NCBI GenBank assembly: GCA_008080735.1
Contig: SHMW01000042.1
Location: 1 to 34,999 of the forward strand
From: Promethearchaeota archaeon
GTDB lineage: Archaea; Asgardarchaeota; Lokiarchaeia; Sigyniarchaeales; SOKP01
Reading direction: 5' to 3'
DNA: 34,999 nucleotides
Below are positions 6,004-30,941 of this stretch, in pieces. The notes under the pieces were generated by a model. It did no database searches. It was not told the DNA's origin and was given only the letters and a program-made list of their open reading frames with translations. The first letter of the stretch is position 1. Every line of letters starts with the position of its first letter. Made by a program: the position numbers and the translations under genes.

Positions 6004-6468
6004 TTATTCAATATTGGAATTGTTCTGTTTTTTAAGAGGGCCTAATTTTTTAATTCTTTTGGTAAATTCGGTAATTAAATCAGCGAATCTTCTCCCCTCA
6101 GAAGCGCTAACCCATTCAAGTCTAATGCGATCAGAATTTAAACCGATTTGTTTAATAATTATTTCAAAAAGATTTTCAAATCTTTCTTTAGTATGCTCAT
6201 TTCCCGAAATATAATGACAATCCCCAATATGACATCCCGTTATCAGTACACCATCCACGCCGTCATTTATAGCTTTAAGAATAAATGATGGATCAACTCT
6301 ACCAGAACACATAACTCTAATAATTCTAATATTAGGAGGATATTGAAACCTTGAGACACCTGCTAAGTCTGCTCCCGCATAGGAGCACCAATTGCAGCAA
6401 AAAGCTAATATCTGAGGATTAAAATTTTTCTTGCTAGATTTTATACGAGATTTTGACATAAACATCAT
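6004..6468 (-). CDS. mvhD: MvhD/FlpD-family [2Fe-2S] subunit, cysteine form
   Basis: Motifs AFCCNWCSYAGADLAG, RVMCSGRVD, GCHIGDCHYISGN, RLEWVSASEG. Its start overlaps the hdrA stop (TAATG). Confidence 0.93.
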   Translation of the reverse strand: MMFMSKSRIKSSKKNFNPQILAFCCNWCSYAGADLAGVSRFQYPPNIRIIRVMCSGRVDPSFILKAINDGVDGVLITGCHIGDCHYISGNEHTKERFENLFEIIIKQIGLNSDRIRLEWVSASEGRRFADLITEFTKRIKKLGPLKKQNNSNIE

Positions 6469-9400
6469 TACTCCAAATAGGGTTCTTCATCAATTAAATA
6501 TGAATCAATCATTTCATTAATTTGATTAAAATCATAATGCTTCACAGAAATTGCACCAACTGGACAGGTTGCGGCACAAGTTCCACATCCCTTACATAGA
6601 GCTGAATTAATTTTCGATTTTATTATATCTATAGTAATATCTTCAAAAACAAGGGTTTTATTTTGTAAATCTATGGCATTATAAGGACATACTTCTTCAC
6701 ATTTACCGCATCCAATACATTTTTCTGTGATTACTTCAGCAATTAATCCAGATGTCGTTATTTCTCCAGCACTTAAGAATCTACATGCTCTACCAGCTGC
6801 TCCATGAGCTTGTGAAATTGAATCTTGAACGTTTTTAGGCCACTGTGCACAACCACATAGAAAAATACCATCTGTAGCAAAATCTAATGGTCGTAATTTT
6901 ACATGTGCCTCTAAGAAAAAACCGTTTCTATCTAATGGCACTTTTAACATTTTTGCTAATTCTCTTACATTATCAGCGGGTATTAAGGGAGTAGAAAGGA
7001 TTATTAAATCTGATTTAAATTTTAAGGTATCTTGTAAGTTTTTATCAAATATTTTTACTTCATAATTCTCTTTAGCTTCTTTTAATTTTGATATTTTAGG
7101 AATTTTGTCTAAATCGTATCTTAAAAAGATAGCATCCTTTCTATGTACTCGATAATAATTCTCAAATTTCTTCTTAGCCATTTGTATATCTCTATATAAC
7201 ACAATTATTTCCAATTCTGGCTTGAGCTCTTTTAATACAGCAATATTCTTTATAGAAATCCCACAACAGATATTTGAACAATAGGTAAATCCTTTTTTTT
7301 GTCTCGAATTTACACATAATATAAATGTTACGTGGTTTATTTTTCTCAACCAATCAGTTCCTTCTTCCTTAAGCTTCTTTTCTAAGTCTTTTTGAGTGAG
7401 AATATTACTATTCTTCTCTGAATATAGAAAAATACCTTCTGGGATAAATTCTTTGGCTCCAGTTGCTACGATGATTGTTCCTACAAAGAGCTCTTCGGTC
7501 TTATTTAGGGAATTGGAAATGGAAATCTCATAATTACCTATATATCCTTTTATTTCCTTTATTTTTGAATTTAAATAGATTTTGATATTTTTTTGCTTTC
7601 TTAATCTTTCAATATGGTCTTCTAAAAATTCCGCAGCATTTTTTTGATTTGGATAAAGAATATGAATATCGTTAAGTAAACCCCCTAATTCATTATCTTT
7701 CTCAACAAGATGAACTTTAAATCCTTTATTTGCTATATCTAATGCGGCAGTAATTCCAGATATTCCACCCCCAATCACCAATCCAGCTGGTTTAATATTT
7801 AAAGCTTCTTCCTTCTGCGGTTGTAAAAGTCTCGCTTTAGAAACAGCCATTCTAATTAGATCCTTCGCTTTTTGAGTAGCAGATTCTTTTTCCTTCATAT
7901 GCACCCATGAACATTGGTCTCGAATATTTACCATTTCAAAAAGATATTTGTTTAAGCCAGCTTCTTGACATGTTTCTTGAAATAAAGGTTCATGAGTTCT
8001 CGGTGTGCAAGAAGCAACAATAAATCTATTTAAATTTTCCTCGTCAATTAATTCTTTTATCCTCTCTTGAGAATCACTTGAACATGAATAAAGATTGTCT
8101 TCGCAATGAATTACATTAGGTAATTTTTTTATATAATCAACCACCTTAGGAACATCAACATATTTTCCAATATTTATACCACAATGGCAAATTAAAACTC
8201 CAATTCTGGGAGAATCTGCGCTTTTAACCTCTTTTTCAGGATTTTCAAATATTTTTTCTAGTATTTGGGAAAATTTCTCTGAATTAAGAAGGGAGGCTAC
8301 CTGAGATGCCACACCACTAGCATTCGCTACTGTTTCAGGAATATCCATTGGACCTTGACAAAATCCTGAGAGAAATATCCCATTCCGAGTGGAAAGTGAT
8401 TTATTAAAATAAGAATCCTCCTTAAAAAAATTGTAAGTGTCTAATTCAATCCCTAAAATCTCAGCTAATTCTTTCGTTCCCTTAGAAGGAACTAATGGAG
8501 TTGCTAAAACCACTAAGTCAGCTTCGAATGTCTCTAATTTTCCTGAAGAGAGGTTTTCATAACGGATTAATAGATTTTTAGTTTTGAGATCTTCACTGAT
8601 TTTGCTGATCTTTGTCTGTATATAAGTTACTCCATATTCATCTTGAGCTCTTTGGGTGAATTCATAAAAATCTTTGCCATAAGCTCTTAGATCATGTCGA
8701 AAAACAAAACATTGAGAATTATCAGCATGTTCTTTCGTTATAATTGCTTCTTTAGCAGTATACATACAACATACACTTGAGCAATAAGGAACTCCCTCAT
8801 GTAGATCTCTAGAGCCAGCACATTGGATAAAAGCAATTTTATGTGGTTCTTCCTCATCACTAGGTCTTAAAACATGACCTCCGAATGGTCCCGATGCGCA
8901 CAAGATCCTCTCATATTCTAATGCGTTTATAACATTATCAAATCTATATCCCCATCTTGATGAAAGTTCCTTTCCGTACATATCAAATCCAGTAGCAACG
9001 ACAATGGCACCAACATTTATATCAAATTCTAAAGATTTTTGATCATAATCGATAGCTTCAACTTTACAAACTTTACTGCATACTCCACAGACATCTTTGG
9101 TTAATTTTAAACATAAACTAGGATCTATAAGATATACAGGAGGTACTGCTTGTGGAAACGGAATGTATATTGATTTACGTTTTCCAAGATTCATATCAAA
9201 TTCATTTGGTACTTCAATTTTGGGACATTTAGCAGCACAATCTCCGCACCCCTTACATTTCGATTCATTTATATAGCGAGGCTTTTTTAAAACCGTAACT
9301 GTAAAATTACCTACTTTACCAGAAACCTTTTCAATCTCATGATAAGTTAATAATTCTATATTAGGATTTCTATAAACTTCTACCATTTTTGGTGCTAATA

Positions 9401-9578
9401 TACACAACGAACAATCATTTGTTGGGAAAGTTTTATCCAATTGAGCCATGCGCCCCCCAATTGAAGGTGATTTTTCCACTAAATAGACCTTAAATCCTAA
9501 TTCTGTTAAATCAAGTGAAGTTTGAATCCCTGCTATTCCCCCCCCAATTACCAAAACTGATCCTTCTATTTTTTTCAC
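6468..9578 (-). CDS. hdrA: Double-length HdrA-like flavo-iron-sulfur protein (two FAD modules), cysteine form
   Basis: Two GGGIxG FAD motifs; IGGRMAQLDKTFPTNDCSLCILAPKM; inserted 2[4Fe-4S] ferredoxin; IQCAGSRD...YCSSVCC; internal CHCGINI and ASCTPRTHEP; C-terminal CIGCGKC/CKGCGTC ferredoxin. GTG start overlaps the upstream TGA. Confidence 0.92.
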   Translation of the reverse strand: MKKIEGSVLVIGGGIAGIQTSLDLTELGFKVYLVEKSPSIGGRMAQLDKTFPTNDCSLCILAPKMVEVYRNPNIELLTYHEIEKVSGKVGNFTVTVLKKPRYINESKCKGCGDCAAKCPKIEVPNEFDMNLGKRKSIYIPFPQAVPPVYLIDPSLCLKLTKDVCGVCSKVCKVEAIDYDQKSLEFDINVGAIVVATGFDMYGKELSSRWGYRFDNVINALEYERILCASGPFGGHVLRPSDEEEPHKIAFIQCAGSRDLHEGVPYCSSVCCMYTAKEAIITKEHADNSQCFVFRHDLRAYGKDFYEFTQRAQDEYGVTYIQTKISKISEDLKTKNLLIRYENLSSGKLETFEADLVVLATPLVPSKGTKELAEILGIELDTYNFFKEDSYFNKSLSTRNGIFLSGFCQGPMDIPETVANASGVASQVASLLNSEKFSQILEKIFENPEKEVKSADSPRIGVLICHCGINIGKYVDVPKVVDYIKKLPNVIHCEDNLYSCSSDSQERIKELIDEENLNRFIVASCTPRTHEPLFQETCQEAGLNKYLFEMVNIRDQCSWVHMKEKESATQKAKDLIRMAVSKARLLQPQKEEALNIKPAGLVIGGGISGITAALDIANKGFKVHLVEKDNELGGLLNDIHILYPNQKNAAEFLEDHIERLRKQKNIKIYLNSKIKEIKGYIGNYEISISNSLNKTEELFVGTIIVATGAKEFIPEGIFLYSEKNSNILTQKDLEKKLKEEGTDWLRKINHVTFILCVNSRQKKGFTYCSNICCGISIKNIAVLKELKPELEIIVLYRDIQMAKKKFENYYRVHRKDAIFLRYDLDKIPKISKLKEAKENYEVKIFDKNLQDTLKFKSDLIILSTPLIPADNVRELAKMLKVPLDRNGFFLEAHVKLRPLDFATDGIFLCGCAQWPKNVQDSISQAHGAAGRACRFLSAGEITTSGLIAEVITEKCIGCGKCEEVCPYNAIDLQNKTLVFEDITIDIIKSKINSALCKGCGTCAATCPVGAISVKHYDFNQINEMIDSYLIDEEPYLE

Positions 9579-10837
9579 TTCCTATCTTTTATTTTTTCTT
9601 GATTGATTTGTATAAAATTTATGATAAATTCAGTAAAATCCAGAATTTTTATCGATGAAATATCTTCAAAATCATTTTGTAAGCATTTGAAATGTAATTC
9701 GCATTTTGGGCATGTCGACACCATAATATTACTCACCTCTTTTGCCTCTAAAAGCCGTTTATATCTTAGAGCTTTTGACCTTTCATTACAATTCATCCAG
9801 CTACTTACACCACAACATAAGGAATTCGCTTTGTTATGTTTCATCTCATTAAACTTATGTCCTACCTTTTCTAATTGATAGAATATTTCTCTAATTTTTT
9901 CCATAATATTATTTTGTTTTGGAAGAAATCTACTAAATCTACAAGGATCATGAAATGTAAATATTAATTTCTTATCTAATCCTTTTTTTAGTTTAAAAGA
10001 AATAATTCCCTCTTCCCACTTTTCATAAAGATACTCTATTATGTGTTTTATTTCGAACCTTTCATTAAAATCTTTAAATAATTTAGGATAATCAATTTTA
10101 AAAGTTCTATATCCCTCTGCGCACGATGTGATGATTGTTGAGACGCCTGCTCTCTCAAAATTATCGACATTTTTTTTAGCTAATTCTATGAATTCCTCCA
10201 CTTTCCCTTGACCCCAATATAAATCATGACCACAACAAAATTCATCCTCAAGTACAACAATAGGATCTTTTTCTATCTTGGAAATCATTTTTAGACTATT
10301 CATGGGAATAGCATCCATCTCATCGAATTCAAATTTAAAATACGGAAGACATCCCACATGGAATAATAGGTCCCCCGATTCAGAAATCTTGATTTCTTTC
10401 GGAATCCATCTTAGATCTCTCTTAGGTTGAATTTCATAGTTTGCAGAAATTTCGGAAATCATAGTATAAATGCCTTTATGAGCAATTTTTTGATCTGGGT
10501 TATTCTGATACTGATTTATCATTTGATATTTCGCAACTCTTACGAGGTCGGCAAAATTTATATCTTCGGGACAATCTTTCATACAACTATTACACATCAA
10601 ACAATCCCAAAGCACTCCACTCTCCAAAATTTTACCCTCAAAACCTTCGAGAATTTTTTGAATTATTCTACTTGGCCTAAAATCTTGGACTTTGCTTATT
10701 TGGCAAACTCCAGTACATCGAGCGCATTGATAACATCTTTTCAGTAATTCTCTTAAATCTTGTTGATGTAAACTGCGTAGATCTTCTTCATTATAATTTT
10801 CTTTTCTGTATGGTGCTTTTTTTTTTGTTTCTGTCAT
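9575..10837 (-). CDS. HdrD-like Fe-S oxidoreductase (HdrC-type 2[4Fe-4S] domain plus two CCG domains)
   Basis: CYQCARCTGVC and CLMCNSCMKDCP; CCG domains FHVGC...EFCCGH...SCAEG and FHDPC...CCG...TCPKC. Confidence 0.85.
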   Translation of the reverse strand: MTETKKKAPYRKENYNEEDLRSLHQQDLRELLKRCYQCARCTGVCQISKVQDFRPSRIIQKILEGFEGKILESGVLWDCLMCNSCMKDCPEDINFADLVRVAKYQMINQYQNNPDQKIAHKGIYTMISEISANYEIQPKRDLRWIPKEIKISESGDLLFHVGCLPYFKFEFDEMDAIPMNSLKMISKIEKDPIVVLEDEFCCGHDLYWGQGKVEEFIELAKKNVDNFERAGVSTIITSCAEGYRTFKIDYPKLFKDFNERFEIKHIIEYLYEKWEEGIISFKLKKGLDKKLIFTFHDPCRFSRFLPKQNNIMEKIREIFYQLEKVGHKFNEMKHNKANSLCCGVSSWMNCNERSKALRYKRLLEAKEVSNIMVSTCPKCELHFKCLQNDFEDISSIKILDFTEFIINFIQINQEKIKDRK

Positions 10838-11961
10838 AATTTAAGGTTAATATTTAAATTCTTCATGAACTTTTCTTTCCTTTCAATTTTCTTTTTAGAG
10901 AATGCAGAGAGGATATTTTGAATTCTGAATATCTCATCATCAGAAATCCCTCTGAGTTTAATTAGTCCCGCATCTCTTACTTTTTGGAATAATAGTTTTC
11001 CTTTCTCCGTTCTAATAATAACAGTAGTATATTTCTTGGGGGAACCTAATCCTCCAAAAGAAATATCTGCATAAATATTAGTAAAATCATCACAAGCATT
11101 ACATGCAACACGCATATAATCTTTCATGTAATTAAATGGAATATGCATTTCTTTATGTGGTTCTTGATTATCACCCATCTGGAAAATCAAATCCTCTTTC
11201 ATGTTGATTTTCTTTATCTTTTCGAATTCAATATTAAAATCCTTTTCGAATTTGTCTAATTGGGATCTATCAAAAAGGAAGTTTTCATAACAAAATAGGC
11301 CAAGACAAATCTTAACATTTTCTGATGGAGTGACTCCCAAACTTTGCATACAGCGAATACTATATATTTGACAAGGAGTTCCGACAAGAGCTAATTTATT
11401 GAATTTATAATTTTTTAATTCTGGAATTGTATGGGTGTATGTCGAAAATTTTTGAAGTTCGATCAACTGTGGAGAAATATTTAATTGAGTGCCCGAAGAA
11501 TCTATGAGCTCTTCCTTATTTTTAGCATAAATAGCTTCCCGTGAAAATGGTGCCTCGGTCTTTGAGACGATAGAACCATCGATCTCGTCGATTTCTAATA
11601 GATAATTAATAATCGTATTAACTATTCCTCCATCAGTTCCATTTTTTAAAAAGTCTTTATCATTGGATTGACATGAATAAATTTCGAGATAATTTCCTAT
11701 AGGCATTGAAGAAAAGCCTTCAAATAAATATATTTTATTTAATTCATCGTCTAGAACACGTGTTTGAGGGCAAATATAATAACAAATACCACACTCAAGG
11801 CAATCATCTTCATTTATATATACTGGAGGAGAATATGGGTCAACAAAATTTATAATATCATACTCTGCGGAACTACAAAAACTAACACAGCCTCCACATT
11901 GTTGACATATACCTCTCTCGTGTACATCTTTAATTAAATCTTCAAAAGTTTTTGTTGCCAT
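10834..11961 (-). CDS. FrhB/FdhB/FpoF-family coenzyme F420-binding subunit with an N-terminal ferredoxin
   Basis: CQQCGGCVSFC and CLECGICYYICP; GTDGGIV, VGTPCQ, LGLFCYENF, CNACDDFTNIYADISFGGLGS. Confidence 0.88.
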   Translation of the reverse strand: MATKTFEDLIKDVHERGICQQCGGCVSFCSSAEYDIINFVDPYSPPVYINEDDCLECGICYYICPQTRVLDDELNKIYLFEGFSSMPIGNYLEIYSCQSNDKDFLKNGTDGGIVNTIINYLLEIDEIDGSIVSKTEAPFSREAIYAKNKEELIDSSGTQLNISPQLIELQKFSTYTHTIPELKNYKFNKLALVGTPCQIYSIRCMQSLGVTPSENVKICLGLFCYENFLFDRSQLDKFEKDFNIEFEKIKKINMKEDLIFQMGDNQEPHKEMHIPFNYMKDYMRVACNACDDFTNIYADISFGGLGSPKKYTTVIIRTEKGKLLFQKVRDAGLIKLRGISDDEIFRIQNILSAFSKKKIERKEKFMKNLNINLKL

Positions 11962-11971
11962 AATTTTGATT

Positions 11972-13474
11972 TCATTTATTTTCGGTTAATTTAATAGGTT
12001 TACACTTATTTCTCTTTATTCCAGCTATCTTTTCTACCAAAAATCTACCTGGTTTTACCTCTGTTAAATCTTTCGATTCAATTAAACCATCTTTTATAGC
12101 GGCTTGATATAGTTCTTCTCCTTTTTCGTTTCTAGTTATTACAGAAGACCATCCTGCTTGAGAACCTATAGATCCTACTGAAATGTCGGCAAAATCTGAT
12201 GTAAGATCTTCACAAAAATGGCAAGTTTCGCGAGCATAGGCTTGTATTTCTTTTAAAGGAACATCCAATTCTTCCCCCGATTTTAGATTAATTATGAATT
12301 TACCTTTATCAATATTCATTTTCACTAGATCTTCTATATTCTTATCGAATTTTTCCTCAACTAATTTGATAATATTATCATAAGAAAAGGATTCCATACA
12401 AAACAAACCAATCTTATATTTAATGTTTGTAAAAAATGGATAGCCGCTTGGAAATAAAGATCCTTTCTCTATTGCTTTCATCATACAAGGAACACCAACT
12501 ATTGCAATGCCCTCATATTGCTTTGATTGATCTAATATTGATAATGAAGCACAGTTTGCATATTTTGTACCTGCTGTCTTGTATAAATCCTTAAGATTAT
12601 TCACAATAACCGCTTTCGGATTCCAAAGGTCCTCTGAGTGTTTCACAGCAATTATTGCATCTACTACTTTATTTTTTAATAGATATTCTAAAAGTGTGGT
12701 TACTATACCACCATCTTGACAAGACTTTTTAATTTGATCTATATTAGTTGTTCCAGAATAGGTATTTAGATATGTCCCTATTTTTTCGGAAAATGTTAAT
12801 GATTCATTTAATTGTGATTTAAATTCACTTACCCTTTCGATAGGAAAGGATCGTGGACAGACTGTGAAACACAATCCACATTTAATACATAGCTCTTCAT
12901 CGACTTTTAACTCATCTGAATTTACGACAATTGCATTTACAGGGCATATAGCGGAACACCAACCACAATTACAGCATAGACCAGAATTATATATTATGGA
13001 TACAGGTTCAAAAATTCTCTCTACAAAATCTGCGTCTAATTTGTTAGCTTTATATTTAAAAATATGTTCCTCTTGCTCGACTTCTTTTTCTACCCCCTTA
13101 ATTTTTTTTTTCACTAATTTTATTTTAACTTCATTAGACTCCTCTATGTACCCTTGTTCTTTCAAATAAATAATATCTCTAAGTAAATACATAGGGTTTA
13201 AATTTGAGAATTTTCTAACAAGATCGTCTAATTTTAGAACTTCTTTGATTTTTCTTAGATCTTGTAAAAATAATTGACGTTCAGTTTCAGCATCAATCAT
13301 CGCATCAAGGATATGATAAAATTCTTGCTCAGTATATTTGCCTATCTCTAAGATTTCTTTCTTAGCTTCAAACAACGCTCTGATTTGGAAATTCTTGGTG
13401 GCTAAATAAGTTGCCTCCAAAACATCTTTTGGGGAATAATTTTTAAATTCAGTTTTTTGTATTAATTGATCCAT
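11972..13474 (-). CDS. FrhB-family F420-binding subunit with a ferredoxin domain and a ~150-aa N-terminal helical/wHTH-like extension
   Basis: CCNCGWCSAICP, CIKCGLCFTVCP, QDGGIVT, AGTKY, VGVPCM, IGLFCMESF, CHFCEDLTSDFADISVGSIGS. Confidence 0.88.
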   Translation of the reverse strand: MDQLIQKTEFKNYSPKDVLEATYLATKNFQIRALFEAKKEILEIGKYTEQEFYHILDAMIDAETERQLFLQDLRKIKEVLKLDDLVRKFSNLNPMYLLRDIIYLKEQGYIEESNEVKIKLVKKKIKGVEKEVEQEEHIFKYKANKLDADFVERIFEPVSIIYNSGLCCNCGWCSAICPVNAIVVNSDELKVDEELCIKCGLCFTVCPRSFPIERVSEFKSQLNESLTFSEKIGTYLNTYSGTTNIDQIKKSCQDGGIVTTLLEYLLKNKVVDAIIAVKHSEDLWNPKAVIVNNLKDLYKTAGTKYANCASLSILDQSKQYEGIAIVGVPCMMKAIEKGSLFPSGYPFFTNIKYKIGLFCMESFSYDNIIKLVEEKFDKNIEDLVKMNIDKGKFIINLKSGEELDVPLKEIQAYARETCHFCEDLTSDFADISVGSIGSQAGWSSVITRNEKGEELYQAAIKDGLIESKDLTEVKPGRFLVEKIAGIKRNKCKPIKLTENK

Positions 13475-13512: not shown

Positions 13513-13582
13513 TCCTCCTCCCCTTGCGAGGGTGTCAACTTATAACTATTATTTTTTTATAAGCTTCATTCAATTTGGAGGA
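13513..13582 (-). ncRNA. Eukaryote-like (Lokiarchaeal) SECIS element in the mvhD(Sec) 3' UTR
   Basis: Minus strand reads AUGA-AGCUUAUAA-AAAAAUAAUAG-UUAUAAGUU-GA-C (core 13534-13569). It has an AUGA/GA tandem G.A core, a 9-bp stem with one G-U pair and an A-rich apical loop. A possible lower helix is UCCUCC (13577-13582) pairing with GGAGGA (13513-13518). It sits directly downstream of two genes with in-frame UGA codons at Cys positions. Confidence 0.82.
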
Positions 13583-14016
13583 TTCGGTGATTCTATTTCT
13601 TGTAGATTAAGTTTGATCGGGTTATGTCCTTCCATTTGAACCTTTTCAAAAGCATCTTCAACACTTTTAACAAATTTCTCTGATTCTGCTGAGCTTAACA
13701 TATACATATTTACTCGCATATCCCCGAGACCTCTTCGACTTAAAATCCTATTAGCTAGGTCCACATGTTTTTGAGCATTAAAATTTCCCGCTTTGAACTG
13801 ACATTCATGTGGGCGTCAACCCACAACCATCACACCGTCACAACCGCTTTTAATGGCGTAGAGAATATGCTTTACATCTATTCTTCCCGTGCATCTCACT
13901 TTAATAATCTTTACTGAGGGTGTATATTTCATGCGAGACACTCCCGCTAAATCCGCAGCGGAGTATCCTCATTTGAGACAAGCAAAACAGATTATATAGT
14001 AATTATTTTCTGTCAT
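13570..14016 (-). CDS. mvhD: MvhD/VhuD selenoprotein, 148 aa, Sec16 and Sec67
   Basis: Manual translation from ATG 14016: MTENNYYIICFACLK-U-GYSAADLAGVSRMKYTPSVKIIKVRCTGRIDVKHILYAIKSGCDGVMVVG-U-RPHECQFKAGNFNAQKHVDLANR...PNPPN*. The TGA codons at 13969-13971 and 13816-13818 align with CCNW-C-SY and G-C-HIGDC of the Cys paralogue at 6004-6468. A GGAGGT Shine-Dalgarno lies at 14022-14027. Confidence 0.9.
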
Positions 14017-14018
14017 TT

Positions 14019-15980
14019 TTAACCTCCAGACAAAATTCCTTCAATTTCTGCATAAATTTGATTATCTCTAAAATATCGTATATCAATTGCTTGTGTTGGA
14101 CAGCAAGTAGCGCAAATTCCTCAACCATCACAGTTGATTTCATCTACGGTTGCTTTTACACCTTCTTCTAATTTGATTGCACCCTTAGGACATTCTTTAA
14201 CACATCTATGACAGATAATACATCTGTCCTCATCTACTTCTGCAACAATTAATTCAAGATCAATTTGCCCGGCAGATGTCATTTCAGCTACCTTACTTGC
14301 TGCCGCTCTAGACTGAGAAACTGAGTAGGCAATATCTTTTGGTCCTTGAGCAAATCCTGCAATAAAGATTCCCTTTGTGTTGGTTTCTTGGGGCATTAAG
14401 CCGAAGTGAGATTCAGTCAAGAAGCCATTTTTATCTACATCCAAGTTCAACACATCGGCTATTTGCGCTGTACCTTTTGAAGGTAAGGCGGCGGTTGATA
14501 AGATAACTAAATCCGCATTAATATTGATGATTTCATCGGTCAAAGATGAATAAACTCGTAGTTTAATGTCCTTTGTATCATTGTTTTCTTCAAATTCTCC
14601 CACTTTCCCTCTTATAAGTCTTATATTTGATTCTTTCGCGTGTTGATAATATTCTTCAAATCCTTTTTCGTTGGTTCTCATATCGATGTAGCATATTGTT
14701 ATTTCTGCGTCAGGGAACTCTTCTTTTAATAATTTCGCATTTTTTAACGCAAGCATACAGCAGACTCCGCTGCAATAGGTTCTCTCTTTATCCCGACTGC
14801 CAACACACTGGATGAATACAATTTCTTTTGGTTCTTTTTCATCTGACACACGTCTCACATGACCGCCTAATGGGCCATTTGGAGCAAGCATCCGTTCCAG
14901 TTGAGCTTGGTTGATTACATTTTCAAATTTGCCATATCCATATTCATCATATGGTTCATAGATATCCCACCCAGTCGCGATGATAATCGATCCTACCTCG
15001 ATTTGTTTTTCTTCTGGAATTTGGGAAAAATCGATGGCATCGAGTTCACATTCTTCCACACAACTAAAGCACTCAACGCATGAATTTCGATCAATATCAT
15101 AAAGAAAAGGAACAGCTTGACCAAACGCTATATCTATAGCTTTTCTTGCACCCAAATATTCATCAAAATAATTTGGAATATATATGGGACATACTTCCGT
15201 ACAGGCACCACAACCATTACAATCGTCGGTTATATATCTCGGTTTCTTTTCAATGCAGATCTCGTAATTTCCAACGTAGCCCTTAACTTCTTTAACTTCT
15301 GCATAAGACATTATCTCAATATTTTCATTTCTGCTGACTTCCAACATCTTTGGACCGCAGATTCAGATCGCACAATCATCAGTAGGAAAGGTTCTGTCTA
15401 ATTGAGCCATCCGCCCACCAATCGTCGAATTCTTTTCTACGAGATACACCTTTATACCTTGATTCGCTAAATCTAATGCGGCATTCATCCCTGCTATACC
15501 AGCCCCAATAACTAATGTAGATTTTTTCACGGGAACTGTTTTAATAGGGACTGTTTCTAAAAGTCTTGCACGCTCTAAACCACTGAGTACTAATTTTTTT
15601 GCTTTCTCGGTCGCTTGGTTAGGATCATCTGTACACCAGCTACAATGCTCTCGTACGTTCACCATTTGGTAATAATAGGGATCTAACCCCGCTTTCGAAA
15701 GAGTGTCTCTATAAATGGGTTCATGGGTTACTGGTGTTCAAGCGGAAGCAACGACTCTTGTGATATTTTTTTCTTGGATATCATTCATTATTTCAGTTTG
15801 ACCACTTTCAGTGCAAAGAAAAGAATGGGTTTTGGAAACGACAACATCATCGAATTGCTTTGCAAAATTTACTAATTCTCCGCAATCTACTTTACTTTTA
15901 ATGTTTATGCCTCACTGACACGCATAGAAGGATATTCTTTCGTTTTTTTGTTCATTCCGTTGCATAATATTTTTTAACAT
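14019..15980 (-). CDS. hdrA: Heterodisulfide reductase subunit A selenoprotein, ~653 aa, four Sec (U23, U81, U206, U620 counted from ATG 15980)
   Basis: One frame joins ORF-track fragments 15363-15665 and 14121-15347. In-frame TGA codons lie at 15912-15914 (YACQ-U-GINI), 15738-15740 (VVASA-U-TPVTHEP), 15363-15365 (TFPTDDCAI-U-ICGPKM) and 14121-14123 (NCDG-U-GICATCCP). The frame ends ...EGILSGG-TAA at 14019. The length matches canonical HdrA. Alternative starts are GTG 15992 and ATG 15965. Confidence 0.9.
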
Positions 15981-19707: not shown

Positions 19708-20616
19708 ATGAAAATCAGTTTAGTTGGATTATCTGGCTGTGGAAAGACCAGTCTTTACAGCGTTGCATTTGCGGCGAAAAGTCCAGAAGATACTAAGTCA
19801 TTAAGTCCGACTATTTTATACGAAACGAGAAGGCATCCATTCTTAGGGCTCCAGGTCGGAATTTTTGATTTTGGTGGACAAGAACAGTACCGTAAGGAAT
19901 ACATGGAAAAGCCCGAGGTGTTCCGGGGGACAGATATCCTAATCCCCATTGTAGATCTCCATGATCCCGATAGTTTTGAAGAATCAAAGCAATATTTTGA
20001 AGGATTATTGGATATATATACAAAGAACAACGAGAAGCCCAAGATCTTCCTATTCTATCATAAATATGATACAGAAGATTATGAGAAAGAGCTCTTGGAT
20101 ACAAACGTCAAGAAAGCCCGTGAAATCTTTGAAGATATCTTCAAGGATTATGAGTTTAAATCATACCTTACCAGCATCTACGATCAAGATAAATTAGCCA
20201 AAATTTTCCGAGACATTTTGATTTCCTCCTACGAGGAACTTAAGAGCCACGTAGAAAAAGCAGAACAAAAATTAGAGGAGATCGGCGCCAAGGTAATTAT
20301 TTCCGATATTTCTGGAAATGTAATCGTCCACAATGTAAAGGGGGTAAGCAGTGGTCTAACCTTACGAGGAGATTTGCGCGATTTCATTAACGCATGTAAT
20401 ACGGTCCGGGAAAATATCTTTATGTCGGATTCAGCAATGTTTAGGGGTCGGAATGAGGATGGAAAAGAAGTTGAGCTACATATCTTTAAGTATATCATCT
20501 CTGTGCTTATTATGAAATCGGGTGAGATTGATATGGATTCGCAAGACAAAATCAATACGCTCTTAAATGATATGAAGCTCTTTGCCGACTTGATCATTTC
20601 AGCGCATACCGAATAA
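19708..20616 (+). CDS. Rag/Gtr1-like small GTPase with a C-terminal roadblock-like domain
   Basis: G1 GLSGCGKTS, G2 PTI, G3 DFGGQ, G4 HKYD, G5 TSIYD (the HKxD and TSI motifs typical of Rag/Gtr). C-terminal VIISDISGNVI...HIFKYIISVLIM has a roadblock-type pattern. GAGGAG ribosome-binding site upstream. Confidence 0.82.
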   Translation: MKISLVGLSGCGKTSLYSVAFAAKSPEDTKSLSPTILYETRRHPFLGLQVGIFDFGGQEQYRKEYMEKPEVFRGTDILIPIVDLHDPDSFEESKQYFEGLLDIYTKNNEKPKIFLFYHKYDTEDYEKELLDTNVKKAREIFEDIFKDYEFKSYLTSIYDQDKLAKIFRDILISSYEELKSHVEKAEQKLEEIGAKVIISDISGNVIVHNVKGVSSGLTLRGDLRDFINACNTVRENIFMSDSAMFRGRNEDGKEVELHIFKYIISVLIMKSGEIDMDSQDKINTLLNDMKLFADLIISAHTE

Positions 20617-27934: not shown

Positions 27935-29470
27935 ATGAGTAAATGGAACAGAATTCTATTAGTTAATGCGAATTATAAAACCAGTGGTTATGACTTTTAT
28001 GATTCTGCATTCCCCCCATTAGCCTTAGAATACATCGCCGCCTATGTAAAAGACATCGCTGATGTCGACATCTTGGATACTAAAGCAGAGGGTCTTAACT
28101 TTCGGCAATACTACGATCGTCTAAAAGAATATAACCCCGATATAGTCGGATTCACGGTCCCTGTGACTAGTGCGATCAATCATGTATTGGAATATGCAAA
28201 AATTGCAAAAAAAATGGGATTTACCACCATTATAGGTGGATGGCATCCTACACTCGCGGTTGAGCAAACACTCTCATCTCCATGGATTGATATCTTAGTA
28301 CGGGGAGAAGGTGAATTTACATTTCGAGAATTGATTCAAAATGAGTCTCCTAAAGATGTAAAGGGATTATCATACAAAGAGAACGGAAAGCTCATACATA
28401 ATCCTGATCGTCCGTTCATGAAGAATTTAGACACATTAAGATTTCCAGCAAGACATTTAGTGAGAGAAAACGATTATAAGATTTTCAATCTAAATTGTGA
28501 TGCTATTGAAACTTCACGTGGATGCCCTCAAGGATGTAAATTCTGTAGTACTCATGTTGTGTATAAAAGAAGTTGGCGACCTCGATCAGTCGAAAATGTG
28601 ATGAAGGAATTAGAACTTATATCAAAGAATAAGAAAATTGAGGATGTTTTTTTAGTTGACGACAATATCTTAGTCGATATGAATCGAATGAAGAAATTGT
28701 GCATAGCCATCATTAAAGCCAAAAACGAGGGGAGAATTAGAAAGAATTTGTATTTCTTTTTCCAAGGAAGACTTGACTCGATGGCTAGATATCCAGAAAT
28801 CACCAAATTGATGGGAAAAGCAGGTTTCTGGCTCGTTTTAGTAGGTGTAGAAGCCACGGATGATGAGAACTTGAAAAAGGTTCAGAAAGGTTGTAAAATT
28901 AATCAAATCGAAAGAGGGATTGAAGTTCTTCATGAATGCGGGATTGTAGTGATGGGCAATGTGATTATTGGAATAAATTTAGATGATGATGTGGAAACAG
29001 TACTTCATACCATCAGAAAAACTAGTGAGTTAACTCTAGATCTACCTAGCTTTACTCTATTAACTCCATTTCCCGCAACGGGTTTTTATAAAGAGATGAA
29101 AGAAAAGAATTTGCTATTGACGGAGGATTATTCTAAATTTAATTGGCTCAACCCAGTTATCAAAACCCCTAATTTTAGTCCAGAAATTCTCCAGAGATTG
29201 CTCTTTTTTGGGTTTTATTATGTTTCATATTATGGGGGAGGATATAAAAATAAATTAAAACTGCTTAAAAAAGTAATAAAAAAGCGCGGGATTAAGTTTA
29301 TTCTCAACCCAGGAAGAATTTATAGAGGAATAAAGGCTTATTTTGGATGGAGAAGGATTGTCCTGAATAACTTAAGCCAAATCGAAGAAGCAATTAGTAA
29401 AAAAATGCGAGTCAGAGACGTCTCGAGGGATAAAAAGCTAAAAAAAGCTATAATAATGGAATCAATCTGA
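27935..29470 (+). CDS. Cobalamin-binding radical SAM enzyme (paralogue 1)
   Basis: B12-binding domain PPLALEYIAAY...GGWHPT...RGEGE; ETSRGCPQGCKFC (CX3CX2C); DDN; LTPFP. Confidence 0.9.
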   Translation: MSKWNRILLVNANYKTSGYDFYDSAFPPLALEYIAAYVKDIADVDILDTKAEGLNFRQYYDRLKEYNPDIVGFTVPVTSAINHVLEYAKIAKKMGFTTIIGGWHPTLAVEQTLSSPWIDILVRGEGEFTFRELIQNESPKDVKGLSYKENGKLIHNPDRPFMKNLDTLRFPARHLVRENDYKIFNLNCDAIETSRGCPQGCKFCSTHVVYKRSWRPRSVENVMKELELISKNKKIEDVFLVDDNILVDMNRMKKLCIAIIKAKNEGRIRKNLYFFFQGRLDSMARYPEITKLMGKAGFWLVLVGVEATDDENLKKVQKGCKINQIERGIEVLHECGIVVMGNVIIGINLDDDVETVLHTIRKTSELTLDLPSFTLLTPFPATGFYKEMKEKNLLLTEDYSKFNWLNPVIKTPNFSPEILQRLLFFGFYYVSYYGGGYKNKLKLLKKVIKKRGIKFILNPGRIYRGIKAYFGWRRIVLNNLSQIEEAISKKMRVRDVSRDKKLKKAIIMESI

Positions 29471-29477
29471 TGTGATT

Positions 29478-30941
29478 ATGGCTTACAATAAATCTCATTC
29501 TTTAAATTGGAATAAGATCTTGTTAATAAAGCCCAATTTTCATTCAATCGGATGGGATTTTTATAATATGAATTTCCCGCCAATATCCTTAACATATATC
29601 GCATCTTATCTTGAAGATCTTCCAGTTGAGATAAAAATTCTCGATTCAAAGTTGAAAAATCTTAGTCATAATCAGATTAAAAAGAGAATTAGAGAATATA
29701 ATCCCGATATCGTGGGAGTATCTGTATTCGTCTCAGCTGCGATTAATGAATGTTTTAGAATTGGACAATCAGTAAAGGAGATTGATCATAAAATACCCGT
29801 GGTATTCGGTGGACGTCATCCCACTTTTGAAGTAAGCGAAACTTTAAAAAACGAATATGTTGACATAATTGTCCGGGGTGAGGGAGAATTAACTTTTCGG
29901 GAAATGATTTCAAAAGGTAGCTGCGAAGGAATAAAAGGAGTATCATATAAAAAAAATGGAAGAATAATTCATAACCCTGATAGAGAATTGATGAGCAAAC
30001 AAGAATATTCGAATATACGACTACCTGCCCGTCATTTAACTAATGGTAATAAATATAAAATGCTTACTGTTCGCTTGGAAACGGTCGAAACATCTCGTGG
30101 ATGCCCTTATAGTTGTAAGTTTTGTACGACTTGGAAAATAAATAATCGCACCTGGCGCTCTCGACCGATTCGTAAAATAATAGAAGAATTAATGCTCATT
30201 TCTCAAAATAAACGTATAACAGACATATTTTTAGTTGATGATGAACTCTCTGCGAATACTAAACGAGTTGAGCGATTATGCGAGCAAATAATATATTTTA
30301 AGGATAAAGGACTGATTAATGATTTTAAATTTTTTGCCCAAATCAGAGTGGATGATATTGTCCGTTCCCCTTCAATGGTCGAGAAAATGGCTGAGGCAGG
30401 ATTTTGGGCAGTATTTATCGGAATCGAGAGCATCGATGAGGAGTCCCTTAAGGAAATGCGAAAACAAATAACCTTTGAGAAAGTGCTCAAAGCGCTCAAG
30501 ATACTAGATAAAAATAGTATCCTTTCTATAGGAAATTTGATTATTGGGGTAAATTTACATGACACTCGTGAAGATATTATTCGCCAAATAGAAGTAATGA
30601 AAGACACGGATGTTGATATAATCAGTTTCGTGATACTAACACCCTTTCCAGGAAGCGATACGCTTGAGGAGATGGACGAGAAAAGTCTTCTTATTTCAAA
30701 AAACTGGTCGAGATACACAGTTATGGAACCAGTTATAAAAACCTATGAATTAAGTCCGGGAGATTTATATGAGCTTCTCTATCTCTCGTTTAGAGAATTA
30801 AAGTATATAAATAATGCTCGAAAAATAGTGAGAAAAGCACGGAGAAAAAGAGGATTGCGTTTTTTGCTCAATCCATTTAGACTCATTTCAGTTATAAAAT
30901 CATATATGGAAATGAGGGCTCTATTTCAAGATGTTAGCTGA
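29478..30941 (+). CDS. Cobalamin-binding radical SAM enzyme (paralogue 2)
   Basis: PPISLTYIASY...GGRHPT...RGEGE; ETSRGCPYSCKFC; GIES; LTPFPGS. Start is ATG 29478 or GTG 29472. Confidence 0.9.
   Translation: MAYNKSHSLNWNKILLIKPNFHSIGWDFYNMNFPPISLTYIASYLEDLPVEIKILDSKLKNLSHNQIKKRIREYNPDIVGVSVFVSAAINECFRIGQSVKEIDHKIPVVFGGRHPTFEVSETLKNEYVDIIVRGEGELTFREMISKGSCEGIKGVSYKKNGRIIHNPDRELMSKQEYSNIRLPARHLTNGNKYKMLTVRLETVETSRGCPYSCKFCTTWKINNRTWRSRPIRKIIEELMLISQNKRITDIFLVDDELSANTKRVERLCEQIIYFKDKGLINDFKFFAQIRVDDIVRSPSMVEKMAEAGFWAVFIGIESIDEESLKEMRKQITFEKVLKALKILDKNSILSIGNLIIGVNLHDTREDIIRQIEVMKDTDVDIISFVILTPFPGSDTLEEMDEKSLLISKNWSRYTVMEPVIKTYELSPGDLYELLYLSFRELKYINNARKIVRKARRKRGLRFLLNPFRLISVIKSYMEMRALFQDVS

Follow-up and report, generated by a model that had tools for sequence, protein, structure and literature searches.

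The window analysed here, a stretch of 34,999 nucleotides, belongs to a metagenome-assembled Lokiarchaeial genome (Promethearchaeota; 140 contigs, 34% GC, 7% contamination), and it carries on its minus strand an intact gene for an HdrA-type flavoprotein, hdrA, followed by vhuD, by a SECIS hairpin and by a series of further genes for Hdr-type proteins (Table 1). The hdrA frame runs through 653 codons, is interrupted by TGA at codons 23, 81, 206 and 620 only, and closes with TAA, while the plus strand of the same interval contains many stops; gene callers split hdrA. The vhuD gene begins 2 nt past the hdrA stop, and the order hdrA, vhuD, frhB-like is kept in every orthologous locus with sufficient flank. 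Elsewhere in the window, on the plus strand, a small GTPase gene of the Gtr1/RagA family, an eukaryote-signature protein typical of Asgard archaea, lies at 19708-20616 (PF04670, E 3.6e-25), and a tandem pair of B12-binding radical SAM protein genes occupies 27935-30941. The GTPase and the database names of close homologues ('Promethearchaeota archaeon') assign the genome to the Loki-type Asgard archaea.

Table 1. Features of the hdrA locus (window coordinates) and genes of the selenocysteine system on other contigs of the genome
Feature	Position	Strand	Evidence or remark
hdrA, HdrA-type flavoprotein, 653 aa, four predicted Sec codons, TAA stop	14019..15980	-	translation; structure, Pfam and NCBIfam matches
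TGA = U23, C-x-U-G (CQ-U-G), N-terminal domain	15912..15914	-	TGA in 17/17 covering orthologues and 39/44 of the wider set
TGA = U81, A-U-T-P (SA-U-TP), N-terminal domain	15738..15740	-	TGA in 45/45 orthologues and 59/70 of the wider set
TGA = U206, canonical D-C-x-x-U (DCAI-U-IC)	15363..15365	-	TGA in 72/72 sequences
TGA = U620, second Cys of the last ferredoxin motif (CxxUxxCxxCCP)	14121..14123	-	alignment with solved HdrA
vhuD, MvhD/FlpD family, 148 aa, predicted Sec at codons 16 and 67, TGA stop	13570..14016	-	PF02662, E 1.2e-40
lokiSECIS: AUGA, 9-bp stem, 11-nt loop starting AAAAA, GA	13535..13569	-	motif reading; directly after the vhuD stop
frhB-like gene with N-terminal 4Fe-4S dicluster, next in operon	11972..13474	-	Pfam FrhB_FdhB_N, FrhB_FdhB_C, Fer4
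second frhB-like gene	10834..11961	-	Pfam
HdrC/HdrB-like fusion, 4Fe-4S dicluster and two CCG domains	9575..10837	-	PF02754, Fer4_8
fused HdrA-like protein, 1036 aa, all-Cys, two complementary halves	6468..9578	-	tblastn segments, Pfam, motif inspection
all-Cys MvhD (CNWCSY ... GCHIGDCH)	6004..6468	-	PF02662, E 3.5e-55
SepSecS	contig C15, 58185-59342		
EFSec candidate	contig C15, 64728-65648		
tRNA-Sec	contig C15, ~60200-60372	-	blastn with relatives' tRNA-Sec; between SepSecS and EFSec
KTI12/PSTK-like gene	contig C93		PSTK assignment from KTI12-family match only
SelD with one in-frame TGA	contig C63		

The identity of HdrA, proposed in an earlier reading made from the sequence only, is borne out by end-to-end matches to solved HdrA structures, namely 9sfi_A from M. 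maripaludis (E 2.1e-197 across residues 14-651), 8rvu from M. marburgensis (E 1.2e-193) and 5odc_A (E 3e-190), and when residues 1-140 are modelled (pLDDT 91), they fit the N-terminal domain of 5odc_A with a TM score of 0.88 and an rmsd of 0.9 A. Pfam recognizes the FAD-binding fold and the ferredoxin motifs, and the four domains follow each other in the order N-terminal, FAD/TrxR, inserted ferredoxin and C-terminal ferredoxin. The residues associated with the cofactors are likewise present: the FAD GxGxxG motif reads VIGAGIAG at 155-162, the D-C-x-x-C/U pair is C203/U206, the four-Cys cluster of the TrxR domain is C392/C403/C407/C408, and four CxxCxxCxxxC(P) motifs are found at 254-264, 301-311, 587-597 and 617-627, all of them on invariant Cys columns. 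The top NCBIfam model is that of HdrA2 (NF040770), with 766.8 bits against a cut-off of 1100, and the cut-offs of the other HdrA/HdrA2 equivalogs were also missed (NF041778, 605 vs 1400 bits; NF041891, 618.6 vs 1300 bits), so that CoM-S-S-CoB is not implied as the substrate of this homologue; as judged from these comparisons, the fold family is certain, the substrate is not.

All four hdrA TGA codons coincide with Cys columns of the solved HdrA chains, and the sequence-only reading, which had taken them as Sec codons at conserved Cys positions, in the motifs CQ-U-G, SA-U-TP, DCAI-U-IC and CxxUxxC and in a frame with no other stop or frameshift, was accurate on each of these points. At U206 the M. 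maripaludis chain (9sfi_A) itself has Sec (X) and the M. marburgensis chain (8rvu) has Cys205; at U620 the solved HdrA chains show the second Cys of CKGCGACAAACP. Since Cys codons make up 34% of the hdrA codons lying one substitution from TGA, the placement of four out of four on Cys has a chance probability of ~0.014. The same regularity is seen among relatives: in 72 aligned Lokiarchaeial HdrA genes, 187 of the 188 in-body TGA codons stand on Cys columns. The remaining one, at column 169 of a single sequence (L075, G023:C125), is on a Leu/Ile column and could reflect an error, a damaged copy or a genuine stop.

The survey covered 41 related genomes, each with many HdrA paralogues bearing 0-5 TGA codons, and the counts of TGA per column in the 72 aligned sequences were 72 at site 206, 59 at site 81, 39 at site 23 and 7 at site 56, followed by two each at sites 304, 597 and 620 and one each at sites 254, 407, 408 and 623. 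In the orthologue group of the window (67-88% identity), site 206 is TGA in every aligned sequence, as sites 23 and 81 are in all 17 and 45 orthologues, respectively (Table 1). In addition, 15 full-length database entries called with the TGA=W code show W at exactly sites 23, 81 and 206. U16 and U67 of VhuD fall on the two Sec (X) of the M. maripaludis counterpart (9sfi_K), and in M. marburgensis MvhD (9sw2_D) they correspond to Cys16 and Cys67. These alignments mark U23, U81, U206 and the two vhuD sites as Sec positions that are long conserved and under selection. Conservation of the TGA codons in relatives, which had been put forward as a check of the Sec reading, is thus confirmed for U23, U81 and U206 and fails at codon 620, where ~104 of 106 orthologues have Cys. 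Neither can the protein be described as unusually selenium-rich, as it had been: three Sec are the norm of its orthologue group, up to four per protein were published in 2016 (PMC4989117), and relatives with five were found here. One such five-Sec paralogue (L074, G021:C12:40442-42388) has an adjacent pair at the CC of the TrxR-domain cluster (407, 408) as well as TGA at 623, where the last ferredoxin motif has its third Cys; other single paralogues, present in one or two genomes each, have TGA at the ferredoxin-ligand Cys 254 (L076), 304 (L028/L029) and 597 (L097/L099). Residue 59 of VhuD (13840-13842 region) is an extra Cys, in SGCDGV, in the window and its two closest relatives, the other orthologues having SGADGV.

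The hairpin behind vhuD has the features of a lokiSECIS. The minimum-energy fold of 13535-13569 is the identical hairpin, its folding energy being unremarkable alone (z = -1.2), and a scan of the window at the Rfam gathering threshold gave no match, so that the element was identified through its motif, comparison and covariation. More than 40 orthologous loci have the same element, 440-484 nt past the hdrA stop codon, and in an alignment of 35 distinct copies 6 of the 9 stem pairs covary, with changes on both sides. Paired cells amount to 94.6%, compared with 39-56% when the partner is slid; it is the compensatory changes that carry weight rather than this paired fraction, because copies were chosen with a pattern that requires pairing and thereby inflates it. 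A strict pattern scan returned eight SECIS elements in the genome and none in the reversed-genome control, the only one on this contig being that at 13535-13569, which would therefore serve all six UGA codons, the farthest of them ~2.35 kb upstream. On another contig (C10, 33525-35021, minus strand), tandem peroxiredoxin-like genes that resemble published PrxL selenoproteins, one with FFRGAFUVPC and one with WUGHU (two Sec), are followed by three elements of the lokiSECIS pattern within 1.5 kb.

The genome also holds the Sec machinery on which the sequence-only reading depended, that is, tRNA-Sec, a PSTK-like gene, SepSecS, EFSec and SelD. The tRNA-Sec has the anticodon UCA and a 9-bp acceptor stem, and its anticodon loop and T-loop are split by introns of ~21 and ~29 nt, respectively; it was missed by Rfam RF01852 and by default ARAGORN in the genome scans, and is present in all six same-genus genomes. 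An ARAGORN call of 'tRNA-SeC' on contig C13 was rejected as a weak false call. A tRNA of 90 nt on contig C1 (11422-11511, plus strand), called as Cys(GCA), combines an 8-bp acceptor stem with a long extra arm; it scores 31 bits against the tRNA-Sec model and may contain an intron. TGA ends 292 of 1679 long open frames (17%), indicating that UGA is not reassigned genome-wide.

Taken together, these data make it very probable that hdrA is an intact selenoprotein gene whose UGA codons are recoded through a shared SECIS. Most likely hdrA and vhuD are carried on one mRNA, on which the six internal UGA codons, four in hdrA and two in vhuD, would be recoded to Sec by EFSec and tRNA-Sec under the direction of the single eukaryote-like SECIS immediately 3' of vhuD.

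The fourth site of hdrA differs from the other three in its distribution. The last motif reads C617-D-G-U620-G-I-C623-A-T-C626-C627-P, in which the extra Cys is 626, a residue conserved in the orthologue group of the window, and U620 takes the place of a canonical ligand in the second C-terminal [4Fe-4S] motif, where selenium would probably ligate the cluster; the assignment of ligands follows motif rules and published descriptions. Across 400 genomes from the phylum, TGA at codon 620 was found in 2 of ~106 orthologous C-terminal domains, those of the window and of a second genome, G231, whose protein has five Sec. Among the 120 best global protein matches none has TGA at this codon, all having Cys, including the nearest at 91% identity. 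The window and G231 proteins are 74% identical, and since each is nested among relatives of 87-94% identity with TGT or TGC at 620, the TGA was gained independently in the two. This distribution suggests, from the sequence comparisons, a recent change from TGY to TGA that is tolerated rather than favoured, because it is rare in an AT-rich genome, sporadic and confined to single lineages. As U620 lies between UGA codons already served by the SECIS, it would be read as Sec by default.

An adaptive role of U620, in which ligation by selenium retunes the potential or the kinetics of a C-terminal [4Fe-4S] cluster on the path from VhuD to FAD, seems unlikely. The two independent gains of TGA at this codon, the presence of TGA at the ferredoxin-ligand positions 254, 304, 597 and 623 in single paralogues, and the extra conserved Cys626 in the motif would agree with such a role; nevertheless, no clade has retained TGA-620, the close relatives retain Cys, and at 34% GC a TGA that is neutral or favoured at the third position would be expected to be far commoner than the observed frequency. 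The retuned cluster potentials that had been suggested as possible for the extra sites, U620 above all, are accordingly not supported in that form, the distribution arguing for a recent tolerated change.

It is still less probable that the TGA of codon 620 arose through faulty sequencing or assembly, or represents a minor allele that truncates the protein; the real protein would then have three Sec and Cys620 or would end at residue 619. The codon is one third-position change away from the TGT or TGC of all close relatives, and the fragmented, partly contaminated assembly described above would be compatible with an error, but G231, an independent assembly, has TGA at the same codon, and the downstream sequence is intact through 33 codons, the TAA and the 2-nt gap to vhuD. 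Compared with the closest genome, 20 of these 33 codons are identical, 11 are synonymous and two non-synonymous, a pattern indicating that the tail of hdrA is kept under constraint. The flanking UGA codons need recoding for HdrA and VhuD to be produced at all. Finally, a pseudogene, or a genome-wide reassignment of UGA to Cys or Trp, to which the splitting of hdrA by gene callers and the W given for TGA in some database entries under an alternative code might point, has practically no likelihood, as the sequence-only reading had also held, considering the lack of other stops and frameshifts, the near-exclusive placement of TGA on Cys columns, the identity of 67-87% to orthologues over the whole length, the long frames closed by TGA, and the complete Sec system with its SECIS.

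Returning to the selenoprotein reading, the five core Sec (U23, U81 and U206 of HdrA and the two of VhuD) are placed, by alignment to solved complexes, at the junction through which electrons pass from the [2Fe-2S] cluster of MvhD/VhuD to the bifurcating FAD. This junction comprises the Cys202/Cys205 pair, Cys16 and Cys67 of MvhD, and the N-terminal shuttle cluster. In a crystal structure, the N-terminal cluster of one protomer is ligated by the canonical residue, Cys197, of the other (PMC9012536), and a Cys-Sec197 feature has been seen between the N-terminal cluster and FAD, its role being called unresolved there (PMC13518236). Furthermore, the Cys202/Cys205 pair, MvhD Cys16, and MvhD His68/Asp71 beside Cys67 surround an unknown ligand on the path from MvhD to FAD (PMC13580544), and a preprint reports Sec at the equivalent of MvhD Cys16 in BamF. 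In our alignments, U206 and VhuD U16 and U67 are exactly these debated residues.

The two N-terminal sites can also be related to VhuD. In a weak hhalign alignment (P only ~0.01), C21/U23/C56/U81 of HdrA stand opposite C12/U16/C42/U67 of VhuD, and Foldseek with the model of the HdrA N-terminal domain retrieves MvhD chains at TM 0.41-0.44, which suggests, at the level of profile and model, that this domain resembles VhuD. The sites had been described as spread over three different Fe-S regions; this is true of the sequence, but the structural literature puts the canonical and the N-terminal sites in one region, that of the shuttle cluster and the FAD-adjacent Cys pair, and the alignments of U206 and VhuD, together with the weak profile alignment of U23 and U81, indicate that the regions distinguished in the sequence converge on one junction. 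The selenols and thiols gathered there may serve redox exchange or cluster ligation.

It is possible, rather than probable, that Lokiarchaeial HdrA constitutes a natural mutational scan of Cys-to-Sec exchange in an Fe-S flavoprotein, with the five conserved HdrA-VhuD Sec at the electron-entry junction. If so, selenol/thiol chemistry at the junction, rather than plain cluster ligation, would be indicated, and sporadic Sec such as U620 would be natural Se-ligated canonical [4Fe-4S] clusters in a working enzyme. In Lokiarchaeia, the positions stressed by the structural papers, the conserved Cys pair and the extra MvhD Cys, are predicted Sec, along with two homologous-looking positions of the HdrA N-terminal domain, and this is a clue to the chemistry involved. 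For its part, U620 would provide a case from nature in which a classical ferredoxin-type cluster has selenium as a ligand, and it illustrates that any Cys codon within reach of a shared SECIS can turn into Sec by a single base change.

The conserved neighbours, frhB-like, HdrCB-like and MvhD, suggest an Hdr-type complex that would bifurcate electrons without a hydrogenase; its donor would be a deazaflavin or flavin, and its acceptor would be of the disulfide type. In the 1036-aa fused HdrA-like protein, the first half has a D-C-S-L-C pair and the inserted ferredoxin and is devoid of the N-terminal domain; the complementary pattern of the halves, a 'heterodimer in one chain', is as reported for ANME and Moorella.

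Among known systems, the closest are the HdrA.1-4/VhuD.1-4 genes of Lokiarchaeum, described as tandem pairs with a shared SECIS and up to four Sec per protein at five positions (Mariotti et al. 2016, PMC4989117). The locus studied here agrees with those pairs (PMC4989117) in the same-strand tandem arrangement, the 2-nt spacer and the non-UGA stop of HdrA (TAA), also found in the orthologues; in the two Sec of VhuD and the presence of UGA at conserved Cys positions only, the canonical site near 200 included; and in the lokiSECIS (AUGA...GA, 9-bp stem, 11-nt A-rich loop) that follows vhuD and would act on up to six UGA over ~2 kb. One of the published Sec, in HdrA.2, lies in the last Fe-S motif and is described as directly followed by an extra Cys (PMC4989117), whereas here, the positions being compared by description only, the Sec is the second Cys of the motif and the extra Cys comes three residues past C623. 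The survey also extends to 11 Sec positions, where PMC4989117 has five, and the maximum per protein rises from four Sec there to five; later surveys, after Mariotti et al. 2016, are without added site detail.

With the HdrA(u)-VhuD of Methanococcus and Methanocaldococcus (9sfi; PMC13518236), the window proteins share the fold, the domain order, the D-C-x-x-U Sec and both VhuD Sec positions. The methanogen HdrA(u), however, contains only one Sec, its SECIS is of the archaeal type, and it operates with the Vhu hydrogenase and CoM-S-S-CoB, whereas the window HdrA has three more Sec, a eukaryote-like SECIS, frhB-like instead of hydrogenase genes in its operon, and a non-methanogen host. The gene content is also like that of the HdrA2(MvhD)B2C2 and fused-HdrA complexes of Methanosarcina, ANME and Moorella (NF040770; PMC9012536), with HdrA, MvhD, FrhB-like and HdrCB-like proteins and a fused double HdrA; unlike the F420H2-dependent HdrA2 complexes, the window HdrA scores below the 1100 cut-off, is not fused to MvhD and bears Sec. 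In summary, the gene type is already published, and what is added here is incremental: the site map is widened to 11 positions and as many as five Sec per protein, core sites are set apart from sporadic ones, and the core sites are mapped to the junction debated in the structural papers.
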